NCBI GenBank assembly: GCA_021296415.1
Contig: JAGWAL010000001.1
Location: 16,720 to 80,719, forward strand
Reading direction: 5' to 3'
Length of the DNA: 64,000 nucleotides
Origin: Acidimicrobiia bacterium
GTDB taxonomy: Bacteria; Actinomycetota; Acidimicrobiia; Acidimicrobiales; CATQHL01
Shown here: positions 31,449 through 59,611 of the stretch, in pieces
Numbering within the stretch: position 1 is the first letter of the stretch
How the letters are laid out: each line of letters opens with the position of its first letter
The notes under the pieces: generated by a model
The model's input: the letters and a program-made list of their open reading frames with translations, nothing else
Told to the model about the DNA's origin: nothing
Database searches by the model: none
Made by a program: the position numbers and the translations under genes

Positions 31449-32273
31449 CTATCCCGGCGGCTCCGGCCCGCCCGGACCGTCAGTCTCCCGTCCGTCGACC
31501 CGGATCAAACGGTGCAGCATGCGGACGGCGATCATCAGAAGGAGGCCCGCGAACAGGCCCGTCGACACCTGCGGGGAGATGATCCCCGCCAGCAGGGCAC
31601 CCCCGAACGCCGATGCCACGCCGCCGGCGCCGGTGAGCAGAGCCCCGCGCAGGTCGACGTTGCCGTGGCGCATGTTGCGCAGCGTCCCGACGACGGCGGT
31701 CGGCAGGATGACCAGCAGTGACGTCCCCTTGGCGGTGACGTCGGCGACCTCGAACAGCAGCACGAGCGCCGGGACGACGATGATGCCGCCGCCGATGCCG
31801 AGCAGACCGGCCAGCAGCCCGACGAGGAGGCCACAGCCGGCCAGGGCGAGACCGATCGCCGGTGTCAGCGAGAGCTCCCCCGTCCCGCCGGGCGGCCCCG
31901 CCAGCAGCCGGCCCGCCGTGACGCCCAGCAGTACCACGAAGGCCGCCTGGAGCGTCCGTAGCCTGATGCGGTTCAGCAGATCGGCGCCCGCCAGCACGCC
32001 CAGCCACGAACCCGAGAAGATCAGCAGCGCCGCCGGGACGTCGACCGAGCCGCTGAGCGCGTAGGCGGCGATCCCTGCGACGGCCAGCAACGCCGAGGTG
32101 GCGAGCGAGGTGCCGTGGGCGAGCCGTTGCGGCAGACCCCCGAGCAGCATGAGGCCGGGGGCGATGAGGATCCCGCCGCCGACGCCGAACAGCCCGGCGA
32201 TGAATCCGGCGACGACCCCGACCCCGGCGAGGAGCCACTTGTGCCGAGCGCCGTCGCCCGCGGCGTCGGTCAC
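31449..32273 (-). CDS. TauE/SafE (TSUP) family anion exporter
   Basis: The product has about 8 TM segments with the duplicated GxGGG pattern (GLFGVGGGILIAP, GLLGIGGGIIVVP). The start overlaps the stop of the upstream Fe-S gene. Confidence 0.8.
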   Translation of the reverse strand: MTDAAGDGARHKWLLAGVGVVAGFIAGLFGVGGGILIAPGLMLLGGLPQRLAHGTSLATSALLAVAGIAAYALSGSVDVPAALLIFSGSWLGVLAGADLLNRIRLRTLQAAFVVLLGVTAGRLLAGPPGGTGELSLTPAIGLALAGCGLLVGLLAGLLGIGGGIIVVPALVLLFEVADVTAKGTSLLVILPTAVVGTLRNMRHGNVDLRGALLTGAGGVASAFGGALLAGIISPQVSTGLFAGLLLMIAVRMLHRLIRVDGRETDGPGGPEPPG

Positions 32274-33193
32274 GCGGGTGCGTCCGCGTCCCGGATGGTC
32301 TCGGGATTCGAGGTGTCCGGACGACCGGGGCGCGCCCCGCCCGCGTACTCGAAACCGAATCGCCCCTTGATGCAGAGGTGCCCCGAGGTCACCTCGTGAT
32401 CGGCCGGCGAGGTCACCCGGAAGATCTGATCATCCTGGGTGTGGAGTTCCAGGTTGCAGCCGACGCCGCAGTAGGGGCAGACCGTCGTCGTGACCGCCTG
32501 TGCCCCGGGGTCGAACTGCCCCGAGCGCCGCAGGTCGAATTCCCGGGTGAAGATGAGCGCGCCCGTGGGGCAGACCCCGATGCAGTTGCCGCAGTAGACG
32601 CAGGCCGACTCCGGCAGTTCCACGTCGAACTCCGTGGAGATGCGCGCCTCGAAGCCGCGCCCCGCCACGGCGATTGCGAAGGTGTGCTGTGCCTCGGTCC
32701 CGCAGGCGTCGACGCACTTGTAGCAGAGCACGCAGCGGTCGTAGTCCCGCACGTACAACTCGTCGTGGCGCCGCACCGGCTCGGAGACCCGTGCCCGGTC
32801 GGCCCCGTGCCGCTGGGGATCGGCGCCGTATTCCTCGAGCCAGCGCAGGATGTCCGCCTCGGCGCGGGAAAGGTCCACGGAGGAGGCCAGGAGCTCCAGG
32901 ACCATCCGGCGCGAGGCCCGGACGCGCTCGGAGTCGGTGCTGATGACCATCCCCTCCGTCACGCGGCGGGAGCACGCCGGAACCAGGGTGCGGGCACCCT
33001 CCAGTTCCACGACGCAGACCCGGCAGGCGTTCACCGGCGTGATCGTCGGCGCCCAGCAGATCGTCGGCACCTCCAACCCCGCGGCCTGGCAGACGTCCAG
33101 GATCGTCGCCCCCTCGGGAGCCGACCGTTCGACGCCGTTGACTTGCACGTCCACCTTCCGGCGAGGGAGACCGACCGGAACCGGGGTGCTCAT
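32270..33193 (-). CDS. Formate dehydrogenase alpha subunit, N-terminal Fe-S portion only (2Fe-2S, His-4Fe-4S, 2x ferredoxin 4Fe-4S, MopB FS0 domain)
   Basis: The ATG at 33193 overlaps the stop of the NuoEF-like gene. Cluster motifs are CWAP...CRVC, CVLCYKCVDAC and CVYCGNCIGVCP. The sequence then reads CPYCGVGCNLELH...GHLCIKGRFGFEY. After that, 24 unrelated residues and a stop replace the molybdopterin domain. Confidence 0.8.
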   Translation of the reverse strand: MSTPVPVGLPRRKVDVQVNGVERSAPEGATILDVCQAAGLEVPTICWAPTITPVNACRVCVVELEGARTLVPACSRRVTEGMVISTDSERVRASRRMVLELLASSVDLSRAEADILRWLEEYGADPQRHGADRARVSEPVRRHDELYVRDYDRCVLCYKCVDACGTEAQHTFAIAVAGRGFEARISTEFDVELPESACVYCGNCIGVCPTGALIFTREFDLRRSGQFDPGAQAVTTTVCPYCGVGCNLELHTQDDQIFRVTSPADHEVTSGHLCIKGRFGFEYAGGARPGRPDTSNPETIRDADAPA

Positions 33194-34977
33194 CGGCCGG
33201 TCCCGTTGCCCGAGGACGCGGGCGCGCCGGCGATGAGCCCCAGACGCAGCGCCGAGGTGACCGCCGAGGCGGCGGTGTGCCCGAGCCCGCAGATGGAGGC
33301 GTCCCCCATGACGCCCGCCAGGTCTTCCAGGAGCTCGCCGTCGTCCGGCAGCGCCGAGCCGTTGCGCAGGCGCACGATCGTCTCGTGCTGGCGGACCGTT
33401 CCCACGCGGCACGGCACACACTGGCCGCAGGACTCGTCGCGGAAGAACGAGGTGATCCGCTCGACGATGTCGCCGATGTCCACCGAGCGGTCGAACACCG
33501 TGACCGAGCCGGACCCCAGGGTGAGGCCGGCCATCCGGGAGTCCTCGAATGTCAGCGGCAGGTCCGTGGCGTCGGGAGACACGAACATGCCGGCCGCGCC
33601 GCCGAGCAGCACCGCGCCACCGGCGCCCGGTGCGCCGGCGAGCGCCAGCAACTCGTCGAGCCGCGTCCCGAAAGGCACCTCGTAGACACCGGGGTTCGCC
33701 ACGCTCCCGGCGATCGAGAAGAGCTTCGTCCCGGGGCTCTCGGCCGTGCCGACCCGGCGAAAGGCCTCCGCCCCCGCGTTGAGGATGACCGTGACGTTGT
33801 GGAGGGTCTCGACGTTGTTCACGACCGTGGGCCGGCCGAACAAGCCGGCCTCCGTCGGGAACGGGGGCTTGGAGCGCGGCTCGCCGCGGTATCCCTCCAG
33901 CGAGTTGAACAGTGCCGTCTCCTCGCCGCAGATGTACGCCCCCGCCCCCCGCCGGACCTCGATGTCGAAGTCGAGGCCGCTGCCCGCCACGTCGGAGCCG
34001 AGAAGGCCCCGGTGGCGGGCCCGGTCGATGGCGTGCGCAACCCGCTCCTCGGCCTCGGGGTACTCACCTCTGATGTAGACGTAGCCCCGCGTGGCGCCGA
34101 CGGCCGCCGCGGCGATCGTCATCGATTCGACCAGGGCGTACGGATCGCCTTCCATCAGCACGCGGTCCTTGAACGTCCCGGGCTCGGACTCGTCGGCGTT
34201 GCAGACCACGTAGCGCTCCCGGCGCGCCGAAGCCGCCACCGCCCGCCATTTCACCCCGGTCGGGAAGGCCGCCCCTCCCCTACCGCGGAGCCCGGAATCG
34301 GCGATCTCGCGAAGAACCGCGTCCGGCCCGACCGCCAGCGCCGTCCGCAGGGCGCCATAGCCGCCGTGCGCCCGGTAGTCCTCCAGGCTGGCCGGATCCA
34401 CGACCCCAATACGCCCGGTGAGCCAGGCGGGGCCGGCGGCCAGCACGCGGGGCGAGGCGGGTTCGGTTCCCGCGGTGGCGAGAGCGTCGGCGACGGACCC
34501 CACTGCCCTCCAGCGAGCCGCCTCGGCCCCCGAGCGCTGCACGAACAGGGCAGGAGCCCGATCACACTGGCCGAGGCAGGGGCTGGGATGCACCCCGACC
34601 GATTCGCCGGCCGCGTGCGCGGCGTGCGCGGCGGCGGGATCCCGGTAGTCGGGATGGACGCGGCAGGCGATGTCGTCGCAGGCGTGGACGACGGTTGCGG
34701 GACCCGCCTCGGTGCGCAGCAGCGCGTAGAACGTGGCGACGCCGAACGCCTCGGCGCGCGGCACCTCGAGGCGCGCGCACAGCTCCCCCAGCGCCTCCGG
34801 GCTGATCCATCCCACCCCGTCCTGGAGCGCGTGCAGCGCCGGCAGCAGCAGGTGCCGGCGGTCGGGCCCGCGCCGGATCACCCGGGCATCGACGGTGTCG
34901 TGGCGAAGCCCGACAGCCGCGTCCAGGACACGCACCTCCGCCGGCGTCGGCGCGTCGAGGGACGATCTCGACTCCAT
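33190..34977 (-). CDS. NuoE-NuoF fusion flavoprotein (NAD-dependent formate dehydrogenase beta/gamma-like diaphorase)
   Basis: The N-terminal part is NuoE-like with 2Fe-2S ligands (HACDDIAC...CLGQC). The rest is NuoF-like (GRGGAAFPTGVKW, ESCGQCVPCR). Confidence 0.85.
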   Translation of the reverse strand: MESRSSLDAPTPAEVRVLDAAVGLRHDTVDARVIRRGPDRRHLLLPALHALQDGVGWISPEALGELCARLEVPRAEAFGVATFYALLRTEAGPATVVHACDDIACRVHPDYRDPAAAHAAHAAGESVGVHPSPCLGQCDRAPALFVQRSGAEAARWRAVGSVADALATAGTEPASPRVLAAGPAWLTGRIGVVDPASLEDYRAHGGYGALRTALAVGPDAVLREIADSGLRGRGGAAFPTGVKWRAVAASARRERYVVCNADESEPGTFKDRVLMEGDPYALVESMTIAAAAVGATRGYVYIRGEYPEAEERVAHAIDRARHRGLLGSDVAGSGLDFDIEVRRGAGAYICGEETALFNSLEGYRGEPRSKPPFPTEAGLFGRPTVVNNVETLHNVTVILNAGAEAFRRVGTAESPGTKLFSIAGSVANPGVYEVPFGTRLDELLALAGAPGAGGAVLLGGAAGMFVSPDATDLPLTFEDSRMAGLTLGSGSVTVFDRSVDIGDIVERITSFFRDESCGQCVPCRVGTVRQHETIVRLRNGSALPDDGELLEDLAGVMGDASICGLGHTAASAVTSALRLGLIAGAPASSGNGTGR

Positions 34978-35044
34978 CGTGCCAGCCTAGGAGTGCGGCT
35001 GAGTGTCGCAGAGTCGGCCCCGCGACGCCGCCCGGGAATCCCTC

Positions 35045-37429
35045 TCAGGCTGTCGAATGCGCGCGCAGTAGTTCGCGGAGGCGCGACGGGCTGAGGTTGG
35101 CCTGTGTGATCGGCACGCCAAGCGGCGCCAAGGCGTCGTGCACGGCCGCGGCGAGCGCCGCCGGCGTCACGATGATGGCCCCCTCGCCGGCACCGCGGAA
35201 GCCGCCGATCAACTCCGAGGGCGTCTCCCGGTGCACGATGCGCGGCCGAACCACATCACCGAAGGCGGGGATCATGTAGTCCAGGAGCGTCGAGGTCTGC
35301 GGCTGACCGTTCTCGTCGTAGTGGATCTCCTCGAAGAACGTCTGCCCCACCGCCTGCGCGACCGCGCCGTGGATCTGCCCGTCCAGCAGCACGCGGTCGA
35401 TCACGGTCCCGCAATCGTGCACGATGGTGAGGTCGCTCACCGTCACGACCCCGGTCGCCGGGTCGACCTCGACGACAGCGGCTGCGGCGGCCGTGGAATA
35501 GGTGGCGGCCACGTTGAGCTTGCCGCGCTCATCGGGGAAGGGGCTGGTGTTGCCCGGGTCGTAACCCACCACGACCGACAATCCCGGATCCATGCCCGGC
35601 GGAAGCAGGAAGGTGTGGAGATAGGCCGCGGCGGCGATCTGCCCGAACGGGATCGCCGCCTCCCCCAGGCGGAAGAAGCCGTCGCTCGCCTCGATCTGAT
35701 CGGCGGGCGCTTCCAGCAACCCGGCGGCGATGGCCGCCATCTTGTCGCGCACCTGCCGGGCCGCCTTGATGACCGCTCCACCGCCCATGACCGCCGAGCG
35801 GCTCCCCCACGTGCCGATGCCGTAGGGCAGCGCGGCGGTGTCACCGTCGCTCACCGCCACGTCGTCGGGGCTGATGCCCAGCACATCGGCGGCGACTTTG
35901 GCGTAGATGGTCTCGTGGCCCTGGCCCTGGGACTTGGTGCCGACGGCCACGTTGACCCTGCCGTCGGGCTGCACGGTCAGCATGGCCATCTCGTAGCCGC
36001 CGAAGCGTCCCGCGAGGGCATGGATGTTGGGCGCCGTTGGCTCGACCATCTGGGCGATGCCCACGCCGACGAGACGGCCTTCCGCCCGTGCCTCGTCGCG
36101 GGCCCCGCAGGCGGCGTCGTAGTCCGCTGCCTCCAGCAACTCCGAGAGTTGCTCATCGAAGCTGCCGGTGTCGAGGACCGCGCCGGTCGCCGTCACGTAG
36201 GGCCGGGGCTCGTCGGGGATCATGTTCCGCCGGCGCATCGTCACCGGGTCGATGTCGAGCCTCTCCCCCACCAGGTCCAGGACCCGCTCCATGAGGAAGA
36301 TGCCCTGCGGCTGGCCGTAGCCGCGGTAGCCGCCCATCGGGCACTTGTTGGTGGCCACGCAGCGCAACTCGAAGGCGTAGTCCTGCAGGTCGTAGCAGTT
36401 CGGCACGACGCCCGTGGTGACGATCGCCGGCGCGCAGCCCAGGATGTACAACTCCGGCGACCCGACGTCCACGACGAAGTTGGCACGCAGCCCCAGCACC
36501 CGGCCGTCATTGCGGTAGGCCACCTCCACCTCGTGGACCTGTTCGCGGGAGTGCAGGCCGGCGAGGAGGTTCTCCGTGCGGTCCTGCTGCCAGACCACGG
36601 GATGGCGCACCCGCATTGCGAGCACCGCCACCAGCGCCTCCTCGCGCATGAAGTGCGCCTTGTTCCCGAAGCCCCCTCCCATGTCCGGTGCGACGACGCG
36701 AATCTTGGCCTCGCTCAGCCCCGTTATGTCCGAGATCACCGTGCGCAGCGTGTGCGGGACCTGCGTCGACACGTGCATCTCCAGGCGTCCCGTCGACGGG
36801 TCGAACTCGCCGAGCGCGCCGTGGCCCTCCATTGGTAGGCCGGAGACGCGGTGATGCGTGAACCGCTCCCGGAGCTCCCCGTCGGCGTCGGCGAACGCCG
36901 CCTCGACGTCGCCATGGGCGCCCGGCATGTACAGGAAGACGTTGTCGCCCCAGTCCTCGTAGAGCAGCGGGGCCTCGGCCTCCAGACCGGCCTTGGCGTC
37001 GCTGACCGCCGGCAGCTCCTCGTAGTCCACCTCGATGAGTTCGAGGGCGTCCTCGGCGATGTAACGGCTGTCGGCCACGACGGCGGCGACCGGCTCGCCC
37101 ACGAACCGGGCCTTGTCGGTGGCGAGCACCGACCAGGTGATCTGGCGCAGCGTCGGGATCATGGGGAGGTGGTGGCTGAACTCTCCGGTGTCGGCCGCCA
37201 GCTCGGCGCCGGTGAACACCCCGATCACGCCGGGCACGGTCATGGCGCCCGAGACGTCCACGTCGCGGATCCGGGCGTGGGCCAGCGGGCTGCGCAGGAT
37301 GGCGATGTGCTTGAGGTCGGGTCGCTGGACGTCACCCAGATACTCCCCCCGGCCGCACAGCAGACGCGTGTCCTCGTGACGCCGCGTGCCGGTCTGCGCG
37401 GGCGCCCGGGGCGGGGCGGCAACGCTCAC
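35045..37429 (-). CDS. Xanthine dehydrogenase/CoxL-family molybdopterin subunit
   Basis: The GTG at 37429 overlaps the small-subunit stop (GTGA). The protein has a/b-hammerhead and MoCo-binding regions, including APDMGGGFGNK. The CO-dehydrogenase active-site loop was not seen. Confidence 0.85.
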   Translation of the reverse strand: MSVAAPPRAPAQTGTRRHEDTRLLCGRGEYLGDVQRPDLKHIAILRSPLAHARIRDVDVSGAMTVPGVIGVFTGAELAADTGEFSHHLPMIPTLRQITWSVLATDKARFVGEPVAAVVADSRYIAEDALELIEVDYEELPAVSDAKAGLEAEAPLLYEDWGDNVFLYMPGAHGDVEAAFADADGELRERFTHHRVSGLPMEGHGALGEFDPSTGRLEMHVSTQVPHTLRTVISDITGLSEAKIRVVAPDMGGGFGNKAHFMREEALVAVLAMRVRHPVVWQQDRTENLLAGLHSREQVHEVEVAYRNDGRVLGLRANFVVDVGSPELYILGCAPAIVTTGVVPNCYDLQDYAFELRCVATNKCPMGGYRGYGQPQGIFLMERVLDLVGERLDIDPVTMRRRNMIPDEPRPYVTATGAVLDTGSFDEQLSELLEAADYDAACGARDEARAEGRLVGVGIAQMVEPTAPNIHALAGRFGGYEMAMLTVQPDGRVNVAVGTKSQGQGHETIYAKVAADVLGISPDDVAVSDGDTAALPYGIGTWGSRSAVMGGGAVIKAARQVRDKMAAIAAGLLEAPADQIEASDGFFRLGEAAIPFGQIAAAAYLHTFLLPPGMDPGLSVVVGYDPGNTSPFPDERGKLNVAATYSTAAAAAVVEVDPATGVVTVSDLTIVHDCGTVIDRVLLDGQIHGAVAQAVGQTFFEEIHYDENGQPQTSTLLDYMIPAFGDVVRPRIVHRETPSELIGGFRGAGEGAIIVTPAALAAAVHDALAPLGVPITQANLSPSRLRELLRAHSTA

Positions 37430-37899
37430 GACGGAGCCTCCCCCGTCCCGGCGAGGGATTCCAGCGCGCTGACGATGTTGACGTAGCCGGTGCAGCGGCA
37501 GAGGTTGCCCGACATCCACTCCTCGATCCGATCCCGGCTGGGGTGCGGGTCCGTCTCGAACAGCTCCAGCGCCGTTAGGACCATGCCTGGGGTGCAGAAG
37601 CCGCACTGCAGGCCGTGGTGCTGCGACAGGGCCTGCTGGATGGGGTGCAGCGCCCCCGGCGAGCCGACCCCCTCGATGGTGCGCACCTCGGTGCCGCTCG
37701 CCTGAACGGTGAACATGAGACACGACCGCACGCCGCTGCCGTCCACCAGGACCGTGCAGGCGCCGCAGGCTCCCTGCTCGCAGCCGGCGTGCGCCCCCTT
37801 GGCGGCCAAGCGGTCCCGCAGGGTGTCCAGCAGCAACTCGCGCGGCTCGACGTCGACTTCGGCGGACTCACCATTGAGCGAGAACCGGACGGATGTCAT
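37426..37899 (-). CDS. CoxS-type [2Fe-2S] small subunit
   Basis: The two 2Fe-2S motifs are CEQGACGACTV, and CGFCTPG...CRCTGY. Confidence 0.9.
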   Translation of the reverse strand: MTSVRFSLNGESAEVDVEPRELLLDTLRDRLAAKGAHAGCEQGACGACTVLVDGSGVRSCLMFTVQASGTEVRTIEGVGSPGALHPIQQALSQHHGLQCGFCTPGMVLTALELFETDPHPSRDRIEEWMSGNLCRCTGYVNIVSALESLAGTGEAPS

Positions 37900-37950
37900 G
37901 CCCTGCCACTCCTCATTCCGAACCTCCTGTTCACGATCGGCCGGCGCCCC

Positions 37951-38841
37951 TCACCCGCCGGGGTCCCGGCGCGCCGCGCCCGCCTTCTGCCATGCCCTGC
38001 GCACGGCGTCGGCGGCGAGCACGGCGGCGAGATCGCGGCGGTAGTCCTTCGAACCGTGCACGTCGCCGGGAGGATCCGACGCCGCCGCCACTCGCTTCCC
38101 CAGTTCCCGGGCTGCGCCGTCGCCCAGTTCGGACTCGCCGAGCAGGAACTCCCCCGCCGCACTGAGATCCACCGGGGTCGGGCCGAGCCCGCATCCGGCG
38201 ATTCGCAGCGACTCGCAGGTCCCGGAGGCGTCACGATGGACGATGACGGCCACACCCGCGGTTGCGAAATCACCGTGGCGGCGGACGAACTCCGAGAAGG
38301 CGCCGCCGTCGCCGTCGGTGTGGGCGGGGACCTCGACCGCGGTCAGAAGTTCGGTCGGGTCGAGGCTCGTGGTGAAGGGTCCCGCGAACAACTCGGCGGC
38401 GGGAATGGCCCGCTCGCGTCCGGTGCCGCTGGCGATCACGCGCCCGTCCAGCGCCACGAGCAGCGCCGGCAACTCGGCCACGGGATCCGCATGAGCGATG
38501 CTGCCGCCGAGCGTGCCCCGATTGCGGATGTGCACATGACCGATGAGAGCGGCGGTCTCGGCAAAGATCGGTGCCTTCTGGTGCACCAGCGGGTCGGTCT
38601 CCAGGAAGCGATGGCGGCACATGGCGCCGAATCGCAGCGTGCCGTTGCGGCCCCCGAAACCCACCAGGTCCCGCACGCCGTTCACGTCCACGAGCAGCCT
38701 CGGGCGCGCCAGGCGCAGGTTCATCAGCGGCACCAGGCTCTGCCCGCCGGCCAGTATCCGGGCGTCCTCGGTCTGGGCAAGGGCCTCGGTGGCTTCGGCG
38801 ACCGACCGGACGGCGACGTAGTCGAACCGCGGGGGCTTCAT
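37951..38841 (-). CDS. CoxM-type FAD-binding medium subunit
   Basis: MKPPRFDYVAV...ILAGGQSLVPLMNLR matches FAD_binding_5. The ATG overlaps the stop of the upstream Rieske gene (38838-38841). Confidence 0.85.
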   Translation of the reverse strand: MKPPRFDYVAVRSVAEATEALAQTEDARILAGGQSLVPLMNLRLARPRLLVDVNGVRDLVGFGGRNGTLRFGAMCRHRFLETDPLVHQKAPIFAETAALIGHVHIRNRGTLGGSIAHADPVAELPALLVALDGRVIASGTGRERAIPAAELFAGPFTTSLDPTELLTAVEVPAHTDGDGGAFSEFVRRHGDFATAGVAVIVHRDASGTCESLRIAGCGLGPTPVDLSAAGEFLLGESELGDGAARELGKRVAAASDPPGDVHGSKDYRRDLAAVLAADAVRRAWQKAGAARRDPGG

Positions 38842-40079
38842 GCCGGAACCGCTGCCAGGGCCGCACCCGCCCGACGGTCCTCATCCCGGTAGCGCGAGAC
38901 GAGCCAGGTATTGAACTGGGCGAGGACCGACTCCTGCCACGAGTACCGCCCGCGCGGGGCGAAGCGGGACCCCATCCCCCGCTGAACCGCCGTGTTGGTC
39001 GGCAGGTCCTGGTTGTTGAACAACTCCACCCCGTGGATGGCGGCCCCCAGCAGCTCGCCGAACAGGGGCACCTCCAGCGTGGACGGCGGGAAGATGTAGG
39101 CCATCGTGAGGGTGTGGGACGACTCGTTCACCGGTTGCACCGTGAACCAGAACGCCGAGTCCGGCTGGAATCCCATCAGCAGGCTGGGAGGAACGTAGGC
39201 GAACGTCATCCGCCAGCGCTCTTCCTCCGTAAGGGTCGGGATGATCGGAAAGATCGCCTTCTGGGTGGGGTTGAAGCCTCCGTCGGGAACGGTTGCTCCC
39301 ATGAACCCGTACATTGCGCCGTCGCCCTCCTCGAAGGGCGCGTACCAGGCGTTGCGCGACGGCGCGAAGTCATGGATGCCCTTGTGGAGACGATCCGGGT
39401 GATAACCCTCCATGAAGTTCTCGACCATGATCTTCCAGTTGAACGGGAGGTCCGGGACGGTCTCGGGCTCCACCGTGACCATGTCCTCGATGTGGTAGTT
39501 CGCCAGAACCTCGTCGAGTTTGCCCAGGCGGGGAGCCAGCGGCGGCGCCTCCTCGTCGAAGTTGACGAAGACGAATCCCTTCCAGAGTTCCGTCCGCAGC
39601 CGCGGCAACGCGATGCCCGAGCGGGCGAATCCCGTCGTCTGGCCCATCTCGGGTGCACCCACGAGCCTGCCGTCGAGGTCGTAGGTCCACCAGTGGTAGG
39701 GGCAGCGGAAGGTGCGACAGTTGCCGGACGTCTCCGGCGGCAGTTCGAACCACTCCGAGGGCGGCCGTTGCGCGGGCGCGGTGACGCACATGCCCCGGTG
39801 CTGGCAGACCGAGGACATCACGTTGATCTCGTTCTGCGCGCCGCGCACGACGATCAGAGGCTCCCCGGCCACCGTGATCGTGTAGAAGTCCCCCACGTTG
39901 GGGATCTGGTCGCTGCGCCCCACGCAGACCCACTCGTGACCGAAGACGGCCTCCTTCTCGAACGCGAAGAAGTCCGGATCGGCGTACACCGCCGGCGGCA
40001 GGCCGACAGCAGCGGTGAAGTCCTGCGCCGATGCATCCATGCTCTCCAGCGGAATGGGGCAGCGGCAGTGTGTCGACAC
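38838..40079 (-). CDS. Rieske non-heme iron oxygenase alpha subunit (paralog A)
   Basis: The Rieske ligands are CQH...CPYH. The catalytic domain has NWKIMVENFMEGYHPDRLH and the C-terminus has FAPRGRYSWQE. The start could be the Met at 40040. Confidence 0.85.
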   Translation of the reverse strand: MSTHCRCPIPLESMDASAQDFTAAVGLPPAVYADPDFFAFEKEAVFGHEWVCVGRSDQIPNVGDFYTITVAGEPLIVVRGAQNEINVMSSVCQHRGMCVTAPAQRPPSEWFELPPETSGNCRTFRCPYHWWTYDLDGRLVGAPEMGQTTGFARSGIALPRLRTELWKGFVFVNFDEEAPPLAPRLGKLDEVLANYHIEDMVTVEPETVPDLPFNWKIMVENFMEGYHPDRLHKGIHDFAPSRNAWYAPFEEGDGAMYGFMGATVPDGGFNPTQKAIFPIIPTLTEEERWRMTFAYVPPSLLMGFQPDSAFWFTVQPVNESSHTLTMAYIFPPSTLEVPLFGELLGAAIHGVELFNNQDLPTNTAVQRGMGSRFAPRGRYSWQESVLAQFNTWLVSRYRDEDRRAGAALAAVPA

Positions 40080-47134: not shown

Positions 47135-47137
47135 TCA

Positions 47138-51865: not shown

Positions 51866-52207
51866 ATGATGGAAGTCACTTCCGAGCGGCGGGGCACAGC
51901 GGTGATCATCAATACCGAGGGCCGAGTCGACGGATCAAACGCCAGCGACTTTCAGGACGCTCTGGAGGCCGCAATCGGCGCAGACGACGATTCGGTGATC
52001 CTGAACCTCGCGCAGCTGGACTACATCAGCAGCGCCGGCCTGCGGATCATCCTGCTCAGCGCGAAGAACCTCCGCCAGCGTGACGTCAGCTTCGCCATCA
52101 GCTCACTGTCGCCCTCCGTGCACGAACTCTTCATCATCAGCGGTTTCGATCAGATCATCGCTATCCACAGCTCGCCGGACACAGCCCTGGCCGCCCTGCA
52201 GGGCTGA
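51866..52207 (+). CDS. STAS-domain anti-sigma-factor antagonist (SpoIIAA/RsbV-like)
   Basis: The 113-aa product has LAQLDYISSAGLRIIL, which contains the conserved phosphorylatable Ser context. Confidence 0.85.
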   Translation: MMEVTSERRGTAVIINTEGRVDGSNASDFQDALEAAIGADDDSVILNLAQLDYISSAGLRIILLSAKNLRQRDVSFAISSLSPSVHELFIISGFDQIIAIHSSPDTALAALQG

Positions 52208-52288
52208 CCTGCTCACCCCTCCGGGACCAGGCGGACGGGCTAAAGCGGAGAAGCACGGCGGACGCGCGCGGCGGGAACCGGGAATGCC

Positions 52289-53458
52289 ATGAAGGAACAG
52301 ACCTACAAGATCCTGGTTGTCGACGACGAGGTCGACCTGGAGCCGCTCATGCTCCAGCGCATGCGCCGCGACATCAGAGCCGGACGTTACAGCTTCGTCT
52401 TCGCGCACAACGGCGTCGAGGCCCTCGAGAAGCTGAACGAGGACCACACCATCGACATGGTGCTCTCCGACATCAACATGCCGCAGATGGACGGGTTGAC
52501 GCTCCTGGAGCAGATCCCCCAGGTTGACCCGAACATCAAGTCCGTGATCATCTCGGCCTACGGCGACATGAAGAACATCCGGACGGCCATGAACAGGGGC
52601 GCCTTCGACTTCGTCACCAAGCCCCTGGACTTCACCGACCTGCGGATTACGATCGAGCGCACGCTCGCCCACCTCACCGAGTGGCGCTCCGCGCTGGCAT
52701 CGCGCGACCAATTGGTCTCACTGCAGAGGGAACTCGATGTCGCCAGCAAGATGCAGAAGTCGATCCTTCCGACGCGTTTCCCGCGCCACGACGACTACGG
52801 GGTGTTCGCCCACATGGAACCGGCCCGCAACGTCGGGGGCGACTTCTACGACGTCATCAACCTCGAGCACGGTCGCATCGGGCTGTGCATCGCCGACGTG
52901 TCCGACAAGGGGGTGCCCGCGGCCCTGTTCATGATGTCCAGCCGCACCCTGCTGAAGGGTGCCTCCATCGGCTACGACAACCCCGGCGACGTCCTACGCG
53001 AAGTCAACGACCTCCTGCGCGAGTCCAACGACACCGAGATGTTCGTGACCCTGCTCTACGGGATCTACGACCCCGCCACCGGGGACTTCACCTACGCCAA
53101 CGGGGGCCACAACGAACCCCTCCTGATCCGACCGGACGGAAGCTCGTCGTTGCTCCCGCGCACCGGCGGGATCATCCTCGGCGTGATGGGCGGCATGGAG
53201 TTCGCCCACAAGACGATCAACGTCGGACCGGGCGACACGCTGTTCCTGTACACCGACGGCGTGAGCGAGGCCATGAACGTCGAGGCCGAGGAGTTCGGGA
53301 TGGAACGGCTCGCGGCGATCTTCGCCGACGTCCCGCCAACCGACGCCGAGGAGACGACGATGTCCGTCTTCAAAGCGGTGCACACCTTCGCCGGAGAGAC
53401 ACCGCAGTCCGACGACATCACCTGCCTGACCCTTCACCGCAGCGAGTCGGGAAGTTGA
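52289..53458 (+). CDS. Response regulator receiver fused to PP2C (SpoIIE-type) phosphatase
   Basis: The REC domain has KILVVDDE, DMVLSDINMPQMDG and DFVTKP. The PP2C domain has VGGDFYD, IADVSDKGVPAALFM, LYTDGVSEA and QSDDITCL. Confidence 0.9.
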   Translation: MKEQTYKILVVDDEVDLEPLMLQRMRRDIRAGRYSFVFAHNGVEALEKLNEDHTIDMVLSDINMPQMDGLTLLEQIPQVDPNIKSVIISAYGDMKNIRTAMNRGAFDFVTKPLDFTDLRITIERTLAHLTEWRSALASRDQLVSLQRELDVASKMQKSILPTRFPRHDDYGVFAHMEPARNVGGDFYDVINLEHGRIGLCIADVSDKGVPAALFMMSSRTLLKGASIGYDNPGDVLREVNDLLRESNDTEMFVTLLYGIYDPATGDFTYANGGHNEPLLIRPDGSSSLLPRTGGIILGVMGGMEFAHKTINVGPGDTLFLYTDGVSEAMNVEAEEFGMERLAAIFADVPPTDAEETTMSVFKAVHTFAGETPQSDDITCLTLHRSESGS

Positions 53459-53880
53459 GCGCCTACTTCTGCGTGGAGGTCGGATCGGCGGAGAACGAGT
53501 CGGTCGATGACGCCTTGCGGCACATGGAGCAGTCGATCGAGGAGTTCGGCCGCCAGGAGCAGTGGCCCGACGACCTCATCTTCAAGCTGCACCTCATCCT
53601 GGAGGAACTCGGCCTGAACGCCATGACCTACGGCGGCGCCTCGAGCGTGCGGATCGTCATCTCCGAGGACGTCGACGAGGTCACCATCGAGATCTCCGAC
53701 GACGGCGGCGCCTTCGACCCGCTGAACGAGGCACCCCAGCCCGACGTGAACGCGGCGCTGGAGGAACGGTCCATCGGCGGTCTGGGGATCCACCTCGTGC
53801 GCACGTTGACCAACGACTTGAGCTACCGACGGGAAGGGGGTCGGAACCATCTGACCCTGGTCACGCGGCGACCGGAATGA
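53455..53880 (+). CDS. RsbW/SpoIIAB-like serine kinase (HATPase_c anti-sigma-type)
   Basis: The TTG at 53455 overlaps the upstream TGA. Motifs are the N-box-like LEELGLNAMTYG, then ISDDGGAFDP and GGLGIHLV. The product is 141 aa. Confidence 0.75.
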   Translation: MSAYFCVEVGSAENESVDDALRHMEQSIEEFGRQEQWPDDLIFKLHLILEELGLNAMTYGGASSVRIVISEDVDEVTIEISDDGGAFDPLNEAPQPDVNAALEERSIGGLGIHLVRTLTNDLSYRREGGRNHLTLVTRRPE

Positions 53881-55130
53881 TCACCGCGACGCGCCGGAGT
53901 GTTGCACCGGCGCTCGGGGTGCTCGCCCTGCTGGCGCTGATTGCGCACGCCTGCACCACCGAGAGCGACTCCGACGGCGCGGGAGGATCCACTCCCACCA
54001 CATCCGAGCCCGCCGGCGGGCCGCAGGAAGGCCCGCCGCAAGCGACGGACTCCGGGGGCGTCTTCGAGGACTCCGTCCTCTTCGGCCAGTCGGCGGCCTT
54101 CAGCGGCCCGGCCCAGGAACTCGGCAAGAACATGCGGCTCGGTATCGAGGCCGCATTCGCCGAGGCCAACCAGAACGGTGGCGTCCATGGCCGCCGGCTG
54201 GACCTCGTCTCGCTCGACGACGCCTACGAACCCGAAGCCGCCGTCACCAACACGCAGCAACTCATCGACTCCGCCGGGGTCTTCGCGTTGATCGGTGAGG
54301 TCGGAACCCCGACGTCACGTTCGGCCGCCCCGGTCGCAGCCGCTGCCCAGGTCCCCTTCATCGCCCCGTTCACCGGCGCTGAGTTCCTGCGCAACGACGA
54401 GTGGCGCAACATCGTCAACCTGCGCTCCTCGTACTACCAGGAGACCGAGGAGATCGTCAGCCTGCTCACGGACCGGGGTGTCGACCGGATCGCCGTGATG
54501 TTCCAGGATGACTCCTTCGGTCGTGCGGGCTACCGGGGCGTGCTGCAGGCGCTCGACCGTCGCGAGATGAATCCGGTGGCCATCGGGCTGTACCCGCGGA
54601 ACACCACGGCGGTCCGCACCGCCCTGCTGGATCTCCAGCAGGGACATCCCGAAGCCGTCGTGATGGTCGGGGCCTACCAGCCGGTGGCATCGCTGATCCG
54701 CTGGGCGCGCCACCTCGGCGAGGACTGGATCTTCGTCACGATCTCCTTCGTCGGATCCAACGCCCTCGCCGAGGAGCTGGGAACCGGCGGCGACGGCGTC
54801 TTCGTGACTCAGGTCGTGCCCTTCCCGACCGACGACTCGCTACCCGTGGTGGCGTCGTACCTCGACGCGCTCGGAGCCCACGACCCCCGCGAGACGCCGG
54901 GGTTCGTCTCGTTGGAGGGATACCTGGCCGGCCGCCTGGCGATCGTCGGGCTCGAGCGTTGCGGGCGCGACCTCACGCGGGCCTGCTTCCTCGACGAGAT
55001 CCTGCACGGTGAACCCGTCGACATCGACGGCTTCCAACTGGCTTTCGGCACCAACGACAACCAGGGCTCCGATGCCGTGTTCCTGACCGTGCTCGAGAAC
55101 GGGCGCTACCTGCCGACCGACTCGATGTGA
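53877..55130 (+). CDS. Type 1 periplasmic binding protein (Leu/Ile/Val-binding-like, Peripla_BP_6)
   Basis: The ATG overlaps the upstream TGA (ATGA at 53877-53880). A signal peptide with Cys is followed by FGQSAAFSGPAQELGKNMRLGIEAAFAEAN..GGVHGRRLDLVSLDDAYEP. Confidence 0.8.
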   Translation: MITATRRSVAPALGVLALLALIAHACTTESDSDGAGGSTPTTSEPAGGPQEGPPQATDSGGVFEDSVLFGQSAAFSGPAQELGKNMRLGIEAAFAEANQNGGVHGRRLDLVSLDDAYEPEAAVTNTQQLIDSAGVFALIGEVGTPTSRSAAPVAAAAQVPFIAPFTGAEFLRNDEWRNIVNLRSSYYQETEEIVSLLTDRGVDRIAVMFQDDSFGRAGYRGVLQALDRREMNPVAIGLYPRNTTAVRTALLDLQQGHPEAVVMVGAYQPVASLIRWARHLGEDWIFVTISFVGSNALAEELGTGGDGVFVTQVVPFPTDDSLPVVASYLDALGAHDPRETPGFVSLEGYLAGRLAIVGLERCGRDLTRACFLDEILHGEPVDIDGFQLAFGTNDNQGSDAVFLTVLENGRYLPTDSM

Positions 55131-55197
55131 CGGCGGTGGCGACAATGACGGAACCGGCGCGTCGGCAGCGATCCGCCGGCGACGGGGGCCACGGGCC

Positions 55198-57381
55198 ATG
55201 AGAGACCTGCTGCGCAGGTTGGTGGCGTTCGCCTTCCGCATCTCCACGCAGATGTACGTCGCCATCGGGGTGCTCGGCTCCCTGACGATCGCGGCCATCG
55301 CCGTGACCTGGGTCTCCTTCAACAGCATCGACAGCGCCCAGGACCGCGTGAACACGGAGAGCCTGCCCCGAATCGTCACCGCCTTCCGGATCACCGAGTT
55401 GAGCAGCGAGCTGGTGGCCGCCGCACCGCGCCTGACCGTCGCCGCCACGCCCGAGGAGCTCGCCGCGGTCTCCGCCGAAATCGTGGAGACGCAGCAGGAG
55501 TTCCGCCGGGAGTTGGACCTGCTGGAGCAGCAGGACGTCGACGCCGCGCTCTTCGTCTCGATCCGCTCGCGCGGCCGGCAGCTCGAATCCAACATCGCCC
55601 AGATCGAGACCGAGATGCCGACATCCTTCGAGCTGGCCGCGAAGATCGAGTCCGTCCGGAACGAATTGGCCGATCTCCGCCGGAAACTCGACGGGATCCT
55701 CATTCCGGCACTCGACGAGCAGCTCTTCTACCAGATCACCGGCTACCAGCTGATCGGCGAGCCCCCCGTACCGCGCGACCAGCACTTCAACGAATCCGAG
55801 TTCATCCGCTACCGCCACCTCCAGGCGCTGCAGACCGACACGGCCATCGCCACGGAGTTGCTTGCCACCGCCTTCACCGTCCGCAACACCTCGCTCATCG
55901 AACCCTTGCAGGAGAGCTTCGAGTCGGTGGTCGACCGGATCGAGATCAGCGCCACGGCCATCGGGCTGATCGCCCAGCGTGCCTTCCTGGTCTCGACTCT
56001 CGCTGATCTGTTCGAGTTGGGTCTCGGCGAGGAGAGCGGCTTCGTCCTCACAACCGAGCAGCTGAGGCTCGCCGAGCGGCAGCGCCAACTGCTGGGCGAG
56101 AACCGCGCGCAGGCCGCCGAGCTGGCATCCGAGGTGGAGGAGTTGATCAGCGGCGCCCAGGCGGACGCCAGGTCGGCAACCGACGCCTCCTCCCAGGCCA
56201 TCTCCACGTCTCGCATCCTGCTGCTCGTGATCGCCGTTGTCAGCGTGGTCGTGGCACTCTCCGTCATCTGGGGGTTCGTGGGCCGGATCCTGTTGCGGCG
56301 CCTCAACCAGCTCTCCGACCGCATGCGGCGCATGGCCGACGGCGACCTGGAGGACGAGGTTGTGATCGCCGGGCGCGACGAGGTCACCGAGATGGCCGAC
56401 GCCCTCGAGGTGTTCCGGCGCCACGCCCTGGAGGTCCAGAGACTCAACCTGGTCGAGAAGCTGGCCGAGGAACTCGGCGAGAAGAACACCCAGCTGGAAG
56501 AGGTGCTGGACGAGTTGCACCGTGCCCAGGACCAGATCGTCATGCGCGAGAAGCTCGCCGCGCTCGGCGAGGTGACCGCCGGTGTGGCACACGAGATCCG
56601 CAATCCCCTGAACTTCGTGAAGAACTTCTCCGAGGTCTCCGCTGAGCTGATCGAGGAGTTGCGCGAAGTGCTCGACGAGGCCGAGGACGAACTGACCGAC
56701 GAGCAGCGGGAACTCATCCTCGAGATCGCCGCGGACCTGACCGAGAACCTCGATCGCATCGCCTCGCACGGCAACCGCGCCAACACCATCGTGCACGACA
56801 TGCTGATGATGAGCCGCGAGACGGGCGAATGGCGCCTCGCCGACCTCAACGGTCTGATCGAGGAGCACGCCAGACTGGCGTTCCACAGCGCGCGAGCCGT
56901 CGACCCGGACTTCCAGTTGAACCTCGAGTTCGACCTGGATCCCGAGATCGGCGAACTGGAGGTACTACCGCAGGACCTCGGCAGGGTCTTCATCAACATG
57001 GTGGGGAACAGCTGCCACGCCACCGACGAGAAGCGCAAGGAACTGCTGGAGGCGGGCGAGGGCCGCTCCTACATGCCCACCGTGCGGACCACGAGCCGCA
57101 AGCTCGACGGCACCGTCGAGGTCACGATCCGCGACAACGGCAAGGGAATACCACCCGAGGTGGTCGACAAGATCTTCAACCCGTTCTTCACCACGAAGTC
57201 GACCGATCAGGGCACCGGGCTGGGCCTGGCCATCACCAACGACATCGTCCGCGAGCACGGTGGCTCGATCCGCGTCAACTCCTCGCCGGGAGAGTTCACC
57301 GAGATGATCATCACCCTGCCGACGGAGCGCTCCGAGGCCGTGACCGAGGAGCCTGCCGCGAGCGGTCCGGCCGAGGCCTGA
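55198..57381 (+). CDS. Sensor histidine kinase (TM - ~300-aa helical extracytoplasmic domain - TM - HAMP - HisKA - HATPase)
   Basis: Two hydrophobic segments flank a helix-rich domain. The HAMP region follows (LSDRMRRMADGDLEDEV). The H-box is GVAHEIRNPLN, and DNGKGIP and GTGLGLAI are also present. There is no receiver domain. Confidence 0.9.
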   Translation: MRDLLRRLVAFAFRISTQMYVAIGVLGSLTIAAIAVTWVSFNSIDSAQDRVNTESLPRIVTAFRITELSSELVAAAPRLTVAATPEELAAVSAEIVETQQEFRRELDLLEQQDVDAALFVSIRSRGRQLESNIAQIETEMPTSFELAAKIESVRNELADLRRKLDGILIPALDEQLFYQITGYQLIGEPPVPRDQHFNESEFIRYRHLQALQTDTAIATELLATAFTVRNTSLIEPLQESFESVVDRIEISATAIGLIAQRAFLVSTLADLFELGLGEESGFVLTTEQLRLAERQRQLLGENRAQAAELASEVEELISGAQADARSATDASSQAISTSRILLLVIAVVSVVVALSVIWGFVGRILLRRLNQLSDRMRRMADGDLEDEVVIAGRDEVTEMADALEVFRRHALEVQRLNLVEKLAEELGEKNTQLEEVLDELHRAQDQIVMREKLAALGEVTAGVAHEIRNPLNFVKNFSEVSAELIEELREVLDEAEDELTDEQRELILEIAADLTENLDRIASHGNRANTIVHDMLMMSRETGEWRLADLNGLIEEHARLAFHSARAVDPDFQLNLEFDLDPEIGELEVLPQDLGRVFINMVGNSCHATDEKRKELLEAGEGRSYMPTVRTTSRKLDGTVEVTIRDNGKGIPPEVVDKIFNPFFTTKSTDQGTGLGLAITNDIVREHGGSIRVNSSPGEFTEMIITLPTERSEAVTEEPAASGPAEA

Positions 57382-57388
57382 CCGGCCG

Positions 57389-59278
57389 TCAGCCACCCAG
57401 CGGCTCGACGCGGACCGCGGTGGCTTTGAACCCGGCGGTGCCGGAGAGCGGATCCCAGTCATCGGGCACCAGCAGGTTCGTGTCCACCTGCTCGGGGAAG
57501 TGGAACGTCAGGAACGCCAGACCCTCCACGAGATCGGGGTCGAAGCGCACCGGGGCCTCCACGGCGCCACGGCGGGACACCACCCTGACCAGGTCGCCTT
57601 CGGCGACCCCCAGGCGACGGGCGTCGGCGGCGCACAGATCCAACTCCTCCCGGCGTCGCAGGGGCGAGTCGAACGATCCCGACTGCACGCCCGTGTTGAA
57701 CGAGTCCAGGCGCCGTCCGGTCGTGAGGCGGATGGGGTAATCCTCGTCGAGACCGTCGAGAGGCGGTTCCCACTCCACCGGATAGAAGGCGACCCGGGGA
57801 CCTTCGAGGGGTTCGGCCCAGAGCCGGCCGTGCAGGAACTGCGTTCCCGGATGATCCTCGTCGGGGCACGGCCAGCGAATCCCTCCTGACGCCTCGAGCC
57901 TGGCGTAGCTCATACCGGTGTGAAACGCCGAGAGCGACCGCACCTCGTCCCAGACCGCCTCCGCATCGGGCTCACCCCAGTCGTGGCCCAGCCGGCGCGC
58001 CAGGGCGAAGACGATCGCCAGGTCGTCGCGTGCGCCTCCGGGGGGCGGCACCGCCGGGCGCACCAGTTGCACGCGCCGCTCGCTGGACGTCACGGTGCCG
58101 GCGGTCTCGGCGAAGCTCGCCGCCGCGGGGAGCACCACGTCCGCCATCTGGGCCGTGGCCGTGGCGAAGATGTCCTGGACCACCAGGAAGTCCAGATCTG
58201 CGAGCAGGCGGCGGGCGTGCGCCGCGTCCGCCTCGGAGTCCGCCGGATTCTCGCCCACGACGTAGAGCGACCGCAGGTGCCCCTCCTCCATGGCCTCGAA
58301 CATCTCCGACAGGTGCCAGCCGACCTGGGCGGGCACCGGCGCACCCCAGGCCGCCTCGAAACGCTGCCGCTCGGCGTCGTCGGTGAGGTCGGCGAATCCG
58401 GGCAGGCGGTGCGGCAGCGCGCCCATGTCCCCGCCTCCCTGCACGTTGTTCTGGCCCCGCAGTGGTGCGAGTCCCGAGCCGTAACGCCCGACGTGACCAC
58501 AGAGCAGAGCCAGGTTGATGAGCGCGAACACGTTGTCGGCGGCATTGTGGTGCTCGGTGATTCCCAGCGTCCAGCAAAGCTGGGCCCGCTCGGCGGTGGC
58601 GTACATGTGCGCCAGCTCGGCGATGGCATCGGCGGGCACGCCCGTGATGGACGCCGCCGCGTCCATCGTGTACGGCTCGACGCTCGCCGCGTACGCCTCG
58701 AAGTTGCCGGTGGCGTGCCCGATGAAATACTCGTTGTGCAGCCCGGCGGCGATGATCTCCCGCGCGACGGCATTCGCCAGGGCGATGTCGGACCCCACGT
58801 CGAGGCCCAGCCACAGGTCGGCGAAGCGTGCCGAGGCGCTGCGCCGCGGGTCGATCACCACCAGCTTCGCACCGTTGTCCCGGCCCCGCAGCATGCGGTG
58901 GAACATGATCGGGTGGGCGTTGCGGGCGTTGGAGCCCCACAGCACGATCAGGTCTGTGTGTTCGAGTTCCTCATACGAACTCGTCCCTCCCCCGACTCCG
59001 AAGACCGTCGCCAGACCGACGACGCTGGGGGCATGTCAAGTTCGATTGCAACTGTCGATGTTGTTGGAGCCCAAAACGGTGCGGGCGAACTTCTGGAGGG
59101 TGTAGTTCAACTCGTTCGTCGCCTTGGAGCAACTGAAGGCGCCGAAGCTCCGAGCCCCGTGACGCTCGACCGAACGCTGCAAGCCACCCGCCGCGGCTGC
59201 GAGCGCCTCGGGCCAAGGGGCCGGCCGCAGCTCGCCCCCGGCATCGCGCACCAGCGGCTCGGTGAGGCGTTGGAGCAT
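57389..59278 (-). CDS. Formate dehydrogenase alpha subunit, molybdopterin portion, selenocysteine-type (TGA at 59036-59038 read as Sec)
   Basis: The track splits this gene into ORFs 59036..59278 and 57389..58945. Translating across the gap gives ...GSNNIDSCNRT-TGA-HAPSVVGLATVFGVGGGTSSYEELEHTDLIVLWGSNARNAHPIMF. This is colinear with FdhF/FdnG, and the TGA falls exactly at the Sec/Cys active-site position. The C-terminal part is a MopB/molydop_binding domain. Confidence 0.8.
59004..59023 (-). promoter_or_regulatory. SECIS-like hairpin downstream of the in-frame TGA
   Basis: In mRNA sense the region reads UGA CAU GCC CCC AGC GUC GUC GGU CUG GCG ACG. The stem is CGUCG/CGACG (plus G-U extensions) and the apical loop is GUCUGG. 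GGUCUG begins 18 nt after UGA, as in E. coli fdhF as I recall it. Confidence 0.5.
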
Positions 59279-59287
59279 GGCCGGTGC

Positions 59288-59611
59288 CTACTCCCCGGCG
59301 CCGGCGACGGCCGATATCTCCACGCCGGGCCGGTAGTGGATGAAGAGTTCCTCGATGACCTCGCGGAGCCCCGCCGTGTCGGCGCCCTTGCTCATGTCGA
59401 GCGTGATGACGTTGGAGTTGATGTGCATGCCGTCGATCGAACCGTCGGCGAACAACCGGCGGGCCAGCTCATCGGGCGGGCGGAGACGGTGCGGGGGCGG
59501 CGGGGCGTCGTAGTACTCGTGTCCCATGCCGGTGAGCGAGCGGTTGATCTCGAATCGCACCACGCCCGGGCGCGAGGACGGCTTCTCGATGACGGTGACG
59601 GGCTGTCCCAC
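59288..59611 (-). CDS. Nfu/NifU N-terminal-domain-like small protein
   Basis: The 107-aa product has VVRFEINRSL...ARRLFADGSIDGMHINSNVITLDMSKGAD...EVIEELF, which resembles the Nfu_N scaffold domain. Its stop lies 9 nt before the FdhA-C ATG. Confidence 0.5.
   Translation of the reverse strand: MGQPVTVIEKPSSRPGVVRFEINRSLTGMGHEYYDAPPPPHRLRPPDELARRLFADGSIDGMHINSNVITLDMSKGADTAGLREVIEELFIHYRPGVEISAVAGAGE

Follow-up and report, generated by a model that had tools for sequence, protein, structure and literature searches.

A 64,000-nucleotide stretch of contig JAGWAL010000001.1 from an Acidimicrobiia bacterium, in the following termed the window, contains two genes which each encode part of the alpha subunit of a formate dehydrogenase (FDH). 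Both reside on the minus strand, at the two ends of an interval of about 27 kb, with the gene for the C-terminal part carrying the molybdopterin domains (the Mo gene) located upstream of the gene for the iron-sulphur (Fe-S) containing N-terminal part, and we asked how this permuted arrangement has come about and whether its products would still form an enzyme. A first-pass annotation, whose description of strand and order we can confirm, had regarded the interval 32270-59293 as an accessory segment with a split gene at its two ends, and had listed as explanations the integration of a circular element, a translocation, an evolved two-gene enzyme and a misassembly. Our comparison with homologues decides the matter for the third of these, which is supported by a conserved split and a conserved operon order. 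We consider it very probable that the locus encodes a three-subunit, cytoplasmic, selenocysteine (Sec)-dependent and NAD-linked FDH of the FdsABG-like kind with shifted subunit borders, whose operon has been separated by inserted DNA and whose genes are functional.

Subunits of the predicted formate dehydrogenase

The Fe-S gene at 32270..33193 (-) encodes a protein of 307 residues corresponding to the N-terminal part of FdhA, as judged from Pfam, the NCBIfam model TIGR01591 and structure alignment. Pfam recognizes in its open reading frame (ORF, 33193->32270) the domains Fer2_4, Fer4 (4Fe-4S ferredoxin) and Molybdop_Fe4S4 (the FS0 domain), the last at profile positions 2-52 of 55, so that NuoG-like 2Fe-2S and 4Fe-4S clusters are followed by FS0 and a variable tail. 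The C-terminus consists of ...GHLCIKGRFGFEY and 24 further residues (32342-32273) directly past the Molybdop_Fe4S4 domain, and the TGA stop overlaps the GTG start of the neighbouring tauE as GTGA, all as initially described. The coding signature of the gene (G+C at third codon positions, GC3, of 0.92) persists to about 32343 and is then lost, the tail having a G+C of 0.83/0.75/0.75 at codon positions 1/2/3. These 24 residues had been taken as unrelated sequence left at a junction, a view contradicted by an alignment (A1) of 15 sequences comprising the window protein and 14 homologues: all 14 terminate at GRFGF(E/Q)(Y/F/H) followed by a short variable tail, and the closest among them carry tails similar to that of the window. 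In the same alignment, the FS0 ligands Cys239/242/246/274 and Lys276, the lysine of the sequence CIKGRFG, are invariant.

The Mo gene at 57389..59278 (-), with 629 codons, encodes the C-terminal part of FdhA, the predicted catalytic subunit binding a Mo/W-bis-pyranopterin guanine dinucleotide (bisPGD) cofactor, as assigned by Pfam, TIGR01591 and comparison with structures. Its product contains Molybdopterin and Molydop_binding domains and lacks an Fe4S4 domain. The first residues of the frame 59278->57389, MLQRLTEPL, match the Pfam Molybdopterin model from its position 1, and alignment to Escherichia coli FdhH places this start at residue 60, just beyond the Fe4S4 domain of that enzyme, in agreement with the original proposal that the gene begins with the segment that follows the Fe4S4 part of FdhA. 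On the structure of FdsA from Rhodobacter capsulatus (6tg9_A), the Fe-S piece aligns to residues 16-303 and the Mo piece to residues 308-933 of the same chain. Similarly, the Fdh-alpha model TIGR01591 with its 672 positions is covered by the Fe-S piece at positions 1-48 (53.6 bits) and by the Mo piece at positions 52-672 (614.3 bits). Both pieces thus complement one another exactly within one FdhA/FdsA fold.

The frame of the Mo gene is interrupted by a TGA at 59038-59036 (context CNRT*HAPSV), past which coding sequence continues for 548 codons with a GC3 of 0.88. In the alignment to FdhH, this codon (U81) falls on SeCys140, the next residue (H82) on His141, and the arginine of the sequence PLRGQNNVQG on Arg333, hence the Mo subunit contains both the Sec/Cys-His pair and the RGQ arginine of FDH alpha subunits. 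The motif DSCNRT[U/C]HAPSV is invariant in all 63 species sequences that are readable in this region, with TGA as catalytic codon in 59 of them and TGC/TGT in four (Streptomyces, Nonomuraea). A hairpin and a consensus fold of 20 homologues define a selenocysteine insertion sequence (SECIS) at 58995..59035 (-), in which the hairpin GUCGUC-GGUCU-GGCGAC (59023-59007) is located 12 nt past the UGA and enclosed by an outer stem of 5 bp. Its apical loop GGUCU is the same as in the SECIS of E. coli FdhF. The consensus fold comprises 11 pairs, of which an inner one flips between CG and GC as compensatory change in 4 of the 20 homologues, and several one-sided G-U/A-U/G-C changes also occur. The loop codons GGTCTG are kept in every TGA-containing species sequence listed, whereas Cys-containing Mo genes use other synonymous codons in their place. 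The locus therefore displays the features of a selenoprotein gene, a UGA at the Cys position of homologues and a conserved hairpin about 11-12 nt further on, and the conservation of the TGA, the compensatory changes and the loop-codon pattern bear out the earlier statement that Sec codon and SECIS have been retained. The Mo genes of close relatives (83-91% identity) are called as ORFs of 505-525 aa because gene callers stop at the TGA, and an ORF of 80 aa is present upstream of the called one in the loci examined.

The third gene at 33190..34977 (-) encodes a NuoE-NuoF fusion of 595 residues, which resembles the diaphorase subunits FdsG and FdsB. Pfam assigns the domains 2Fe-2S_thioredx, Complex1_51K, SLBB and NADH_4Fe-4S, with sites for a 2Fe-2S cluster, flavin mononucleotide (FMN)/NAD(H) and a 4Fe-4S cluster, and in NCBIfam the protein matches TIGR01959 and the FDH gamma model NF004638. 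The gene, termed nuoEF, overlaps the Fe-S gene by 4 nt and adjoins it in all loci examined. The hallmarks of NAD-linked FDHs of the FdsABG type are thus present: NuoF- and NuoE-like modules are encoded with the alpha subunit, here 22.4 kb from the Mo gene, and the NuoG-like 2Fe-2S/4Fe-4S region feeding FS0 is found on a separate polypeptide.

Distribution, gene order and the variable spacer

To define the age of the split, we compared both pieces with their homologues. In a search of the Fe-S piece against 5.8 billion proteins, the 120 matches listed share 56-91% identity and are all stand-alone proteins, of 280-333 aa except for three with longer calls (392 and 441 aa); nearly all contain PF04879 and none PF00384. 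The best homologues of the Mo piece are equally stand-alone proteins of 630-660 aa with 61-67% identity over 99-100% of the length, which carry PF00384 and PF01568, lack PF04879 and originate from Streptomyces, Saccharopolyspora, Nonomuraea, Thermopolyspora and others. Within a library of 50%-identity representatives, proteins that match over the full length at more than about 50% identity are likewise of the stand-alone kind, whereas fused proteins of 770-1250 aa turn up only at or below about 42% identity, although the many fragments in the list make this a rough guide. A scan of one genome per GTDB species provided 80 loci from Acidimicrobiia, Actinomycetes, Thermoleophilia, Acidobacteriota, Eremiobacterota, Dormibacterota, Chloroflexota, Eisenbacteria and a few others. 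In all 79 loci with a readable stop the Fe-S ORF ends past the motif, with a tail of 0-35 aa in most and longer open tails in few. Among the 72 informative loci, which contain enough upstream DNA and where the Mo gene was sought by tblastn, 68 show the contiguous order Mo, NuoEF and FeS, all on the same strand and separated by 19-714 nt. This order is found in the marine Acidimicrobiia L003-L005 (loci are designated by L and a number), with a Mo gene of 79 + 496 aa around the TGA, a NuoE/F fusion of 596 aa and an Fe-S protein of 287 aa, and in the cultured actinomycete Thermopolyspora flexuosa, where genes for Mo (641 aa), NuoE/F (615 aa) and Fe-S (292 aa) proteins are followed by one for FdhD. 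In 25 of the 80 loci, a homologue of fdhD, the gene of a sulfurtransferase, is located no more than 10 kb away.

The split FDH is hence an old and widespread three-gene selenoenzyme and not a gene broken by a mobile element, with Mo-NuoEF-FeS as its presumable ancestral and usual operon order, and it is because of this order that the C-terminal part of the alpha subunit lies upstream of its N-terminal part. The idea of a recent event has to be abandoned: what had been named beforehand as its refutation is what we find, since the separate genes recur across many unrelated genomes and no intact version is present in the clade. The split is old and unrelated to the 27-kb interval, which leaves the proposed division of the gene by a circular accessory segment without support.

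Three of the four exceptions to the contiguous order are relatives of the window. The only such locus outside its clade, L089 (the Chloroflexi metagenome-assembled genome (MAG) JAJYXX010000162.1), shows no Mo gene within 8 kb upstream of nuoEF-FeS and has an fdhD-like gene downstream. In the window, Mo gene and nuoEF are separated by a variable block of 22,411 nt (34978..57388), which we characterized by Pfam, NCBIfam and blastn against relatives and which is the only part that differs among them. The flanks are the same in those relatives that reach them, with gpsA, a 500-aa ORF, rnhB and a small ORF upstream and tauE, qor, HTH_17, phoH and ybeY downstream. The interval 32270-59293 does not constitute one accessory unit, because the three FDH genes at its ends are conserved core parts of one operon. 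A 524-aa ORF at 60574-62148 (-) and a 107-aa ORF at 59288-59611 (-) match neither Pfam nor NCBIfam, the latter having been labelled 'Nfu-like' in the first-pass annotation; the same two positions in L006-L008 are occupied by ORFs of 468-504 aa and 84-105 aa without Pfam match. Far from the FDH genes, the window contains as core features a class A RNase P RNA gene at 13838-14185 (+, 196.7 bits) and the genes of tRNA-Val, tRNA-Met and tRNA-Asn at 15939-17674 (-); these three tRNAs do not include a tRNA-Sec.

The spacer between Mo gene and nuoEF differs in size and content among relatives. In L008 (on a 2.39-Mb contig) it extends over 7.1 kb and contains a signalling cassette on the opposite strand, with genes for a histidine kinase, a binding protein, HATPase_c_2, RR-PP2C and STAS proteins, and one Rieske oxygenase gene. 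The spacer of 7.2 kb in L013 (MAG SB0661_bin_55) aligns to the same blocks of the window as L008 and therefore presumably has the same content. In L007/L091 (on a 3.9-Mb contig), where the spacer measures 12.4 kb, an ammonium transporter and CoxMSL-like genes are added, and the window in turn adds a Bmp-type ATP-binding cassette (ABC) transporter, further Rieske genes, a creatinase-like peptidase and an amidase remnant. In blastn comparisons, L008 and L013 lack window positions 35120-48539 and ~49693-51828 and L007 lacks 38963-48538. The simplest history would thus be that of an operon which was already split when DNA entered its spacer step by step, without change of order or strand. In such a course, the opposite-strand signalling cassette and a Rieske oxygenase gene would have entered first (7.1 kb), CoxMSL-like genes would have joined in a second step (12.4 kb), and the ABC transporter, more Rieske oxygenases, creatinase and amidase would have expanded the spacer to the 22.4 kb of the window.

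In the window, the partner-switching/two-component cassette at 51866-57381 (+), assigned by Pfam and NCBIfam, includes genes for a STAS protein (51866-52207, +), an RR-PP2C protein (response regulator-SpoIIE, 52289-53458, +) and a TorS-like HAMP histidine kinase (55198-57381, +), besides a probable HATPase_c_2 kinase and a Peripla_BP_6 protein. It is convergent with the Mo gene and forms the common core of the inserted block in the relatives L006-L008. The histidine kinase gene ends 7 nt from the stop of the Mo gene and, with the cassette on the opposite strand, the Mo gene would therefore be transcriptionally separate from nuoEF-FeS. The block further contains four paralogous alpha-only Rieske oxygenase genes (38838-40079, 41902-43131, 48526-49917 and 50333-51532, all -), whose best NCBIfam match, the glycine betaine monooxygenase GbcA, is far below cut-off, and no dedicated reductase gene was seen alongside them among the ORFs scanned in the block. 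Directly upstream of nuoEF are located genes of a CoxL/S/M-like molybdo-flavoenzyme (35045-38841, -), with aerobic carbon monoxide dehydrogenase group 5 and glyceraldehyde dehydrogenase alpha as best NCBIfam matches, both below cut-off. The listed coxL ORF of 892 aa is about 100 aa longer than its counterparts in relatives (795-796 aa), and its true start is therefore probably located downstream. The amidase remnant (40155-40553, -, junction at ~40471/40472) matches Pfam Amidase only at the C-terminal end (positions 400-445 of 445); L001 contains an intact amidase of 474 aa, and the window lacks ~915 bp of this gene (L001 1707-2622). The gene for the Bmp-family binding protein of the ABC transporter (47138-48604, -) harbours at 48032-48193 an 18-nt tandem repeat of ~7-9 copies, which encodes acidic hexapeptide repeats (…EPMVEAEPMDEAEPMVEAEPMVEAES…) just past a lipoprotein-like signal (LLAAGCSS). 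A gene for a creatinase-like M24 peptidase is also part of the block.

Predicted function and relation to known enzymes

The proposed enzyme would work by the scheme of FdsABG with different borders between its polypeptides, where the FdsA chain is divided between domain I (Fe4S4/FS0) and the molybdopterin domains, and a single NuoE/F protein combines FdsG and FdsB. Formate would be oxidized at the Sec-ligated Mo/W-bisPGD of the Mo subunit, with an active site made of the Sec-His pair and the arginine. Electrons would then cross the subunit interface to FS0, with its conserved lysine, on the Fe-S subunit and proceed via the 4Fe-4S and 2Fe-2S clusters of this subunit to the NuoE/F fusion, where FMN would pass them on to NAD+, a route that would require the three proteins to assemble. 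The neighbouring genes (GbcA-like Rieske, creatinase and amidase, and carnitine/betaine genes in L003-L005) suggest a catabolism of methylated amines yielding one-carbon units, a setting into which a sink for formate would fit as far as the gene context is concerned.

Relations to several characterized enzymes help to place this architecture. FdsGBA(D) of R. capsulatus and Cupriavidus necator (PDB 6TGA/6TG9) shares its cofactor set and domain order, with the two pieces of the window together covering FdsA residues 16-933 and with NuoE-/NuoF-like modules and the C/U-H ... RGQ site in common. In contrast, FdsA is one chain of 958 aa, whereas the window encodes two polypeptides cut between FS0 and Mo domains with the Mo part first, FdsG and FdsB are fused, and Sec replaces Cys in most split members. 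E. coli FdhH (FdhF, PDB 1AA6) contains equivalents of the SeCys-His pair and Arg333 and has the same fold from residue 60 onward, but its catalytic chain includes an Fe4S4 domain (residues 1-59), and the Mo subunit of the window starts right after the corresponding position. In clostridial electron-bifurcating FDH/hydrogenase-like complexes, such as HylABC-FdhF2 and the hydrogen-dependent CO2 reductase (HDCR), a Sec- or Cys-containing FdhF is likewise served by separate NuoG-like Fe-S and NuoE/NuoF-like subunits, and FdhF of HDCR (PDB 7QV7) ranks first among the PDB matches of the Mo piece. In these systems the cut precedes the Fe4S4 domain and FdhF keeps FS0, whereas in the window it follows this domain and FS0 resides on the Fe-S subunit. 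A precedent for the distribution of a Mo/W-bisPGD unit over two polypeptides is provided by formylmethanofuran dehydrogenase FwdB/FwdD (PDB 5T5I), where FwdB matches the Mo subunit of the window at residues 4-172. There the cut is found at the other end, with the Molydop_binding domain, the C-terminal cap, becoming FwdD, and the enzyme differs from the window system in substrate and partners. The split genes are already contained in hundreds of public genomes under generic annotations, and their architecture is uncharacterized in the papers and PDB entries searched.

Several observations weigh against the assignment as a functional three-subunit FDH. On its own, the Mo piece remains under the curated cut-off of TIGR01591 (614.3 vs 666.25 bits) and no single polypeptide combines FS0 and Mo domains above it; the system is therefore a split variant and not a canonical alpha subunit. 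Every solved homologue found (FdsA, FdhH, HDCR FdhF, F420-FDH and W-FDH) has its Fe4S4 and Mo domains on one chain, and a literature search, itself limited, recovered no description of the split architecture. The 64-kb window contains neither fdhD nor sel genes. Finally, CoxMSL and Rieske genes immediately precede the separated NuoEF-FeS pair, which could work with other partners.

Competing explanations and implications

The last of these points leads to the alternative that survives best, in which NuoEF-FeS would also, or instead, shuttle electrons between NAD(H) and the CoxMSL-like or Rieske enzymes, with the Mo subunit as one partner of several. Such re-wiring would account for the gap of 67 nt between coxL and nuoEF on the same strand, for the Rieske gene that directly precedes nuoEF in L008, whose window blocks L013 matches in unchanged order, and for four GbcA-like Rieske alpha genes in a block where no reductase was seen. 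Since this argument draws on gene context, a reductase gene may be located in another part of the genome, and the retention of FS0 and Lys276 on the Fe-S subunit together with an equal constraint on the Mo subunit suggests that the FDH partnership persists, we regard re-wiring as improbable.

Still less probable is a decaying enzyme, in which the separation of the Mo gene from nuoEF-FeS would have left non-functional relics and the TGA would be a true stop. The physically broken operon, the convergent histidine kinase gene next to the Mo gene and the lack of fdhD and sel genes within the window would be compatible with decay. The selective constraint on the genes is not. In pairwise NG86 (Nei-Gojobori) comparisons with relatives sharing the interruption (dS 0.39-1.16), the ratio dN/dS amounts to 0.09-0.14 for the Mo gene, 0.16-0.21 for nuoEF and 0.10-0.15 for the core of the Fe-S gene. 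All three genes are consequently under purifying selection, and with all cluster ligands and catalytic residues intact, pseudogenization is unlikely. The conservation of TGA and SECIS and the long coding region past the TGA further oppose the relic hypothesis. Continued function, which the first-pass annotation had considered as possible explanation for the intact halves and for which it had recommended this very comparison, is thus supported by the data.

We assign next to no probability to a once-circular element, either a plasmid or an integrative and conjugative element, which would have carried an intact fdhA and integrated via a site inside this gene to leave its halves permuted at the ends. 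The features that had led to this proposal are real: the outer ends of the interval, if joined, would read through in one frame, an 8-bp imperfect repeat is found at both joints, and part of the interval is slightly poorer in G+C. However, the repeat is not significant and in line with the chance origin that had been cautioned from the outset, as GAGTASGC has two matches in the window against 1.9 expected and at least two in 55 of 100 shuffles, and the drop in G+C is modest (0.645-0.69 across 38-58 kb vs 0.70-0.76 outside) and does not coincide with the two joints. The interval contains no longer direct or inverted terminal repeats, the only repetition found being the similarity of the Rieske paralogs and the 18-nt tandem repeat, and a search near the joints for attachment sites in the form of tRNA, tmRNA or other RNA elements was negative, the only tRNAs being located at 15.9-17.7 kb. 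As noted before, no integrase or transposase is visible, and Pfam detects neither domain in 28 distinct ORFs scanned across 28.9-63.1 kb. An HTH_17 (excisionase/MerR-like) gene at 29959-30240 (-) is located outside the interval between qor and phoH; it occupies the same place in L001, L002 and L091, the last of which has a 12.4-kb spacer, and is therefore no mark of a mobile element. The cut falls on one and the same residue in every listed homologue and in every species locus with a readable stop, the large majority of informative loci have the three genes side by side without anything in between, the flanks are conserved, and the interval varies only internally (7.1, 12.4 and 22.4 kb). The recommended check of relatives for an empty site, with tauE beside the gene at 59288-59611, or for a fused fdhA was carried out, and neither was found in those examined.

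A chimeric join in the assembly at 32.3 or 59.3 kb, for which nothing but the odd gene order would speak, is just as improbable: the Fe-S gene adjoins the gene of the TauE/SafE-family membrane protein, assigned by Pfam and its place in the conserved downstream flank (31449..32273, -), also in L001, L002, L008 and L091, which are independent assemblies from different samples and pipelines, L011-L013 are colinear with the window across this region, with the L013 counterpart of the tauE region aligning at the DNA level, the small upstream gene likewise adjoins the Mo gene in L006, L007 and L008, and finished genomes of Streptomyces and Thermopolyspora also show the split. A translocation is rejected, as gene order and strand are unchanged.

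The apparent permuted split gene flanking an island thus reflects an ordinary conserved operon order combined with local gene accretion, and the three-subunit FDH to which it belongs represents a very widespread and mostly Sec-dependent architecture, which occurs as the Cys form in cultured Streptomyces and also in numerous uncultured phyla of soils and marine habitats. In annotation, gene callers routinely cut the Mo subunit at the Sec codon into pieces of 80 aa and 518 aa. As a far more tentative proposal, which we consider rather doubtful in its full extent, these proteins might define an uncharacterized class of FDHs, composed of a Mo subunit without FS0, a NuoE/F fusion and an Fe-S subunit with FS0. 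Such a class would be mostly Sec-containing and would extend widely over Actinomycetota, Acidobacteriota, Eremiobacterota, Dormibacterota and further phyla, and its first electron transfer, from pterin to FS0, would cross a subunit interface. In sponge-associated Acidimicrobiales, Rieske N-demethylases and a CoxLMS-type enzyme encoded nearby may have come to share its diaphorase half as an NAD(H) module. The location of FS0 on a different polypeptide from the Mo/W cofactor would bear on the assembly of these enzymes and on the engineering of modular FDHs for the reduction of CO2.

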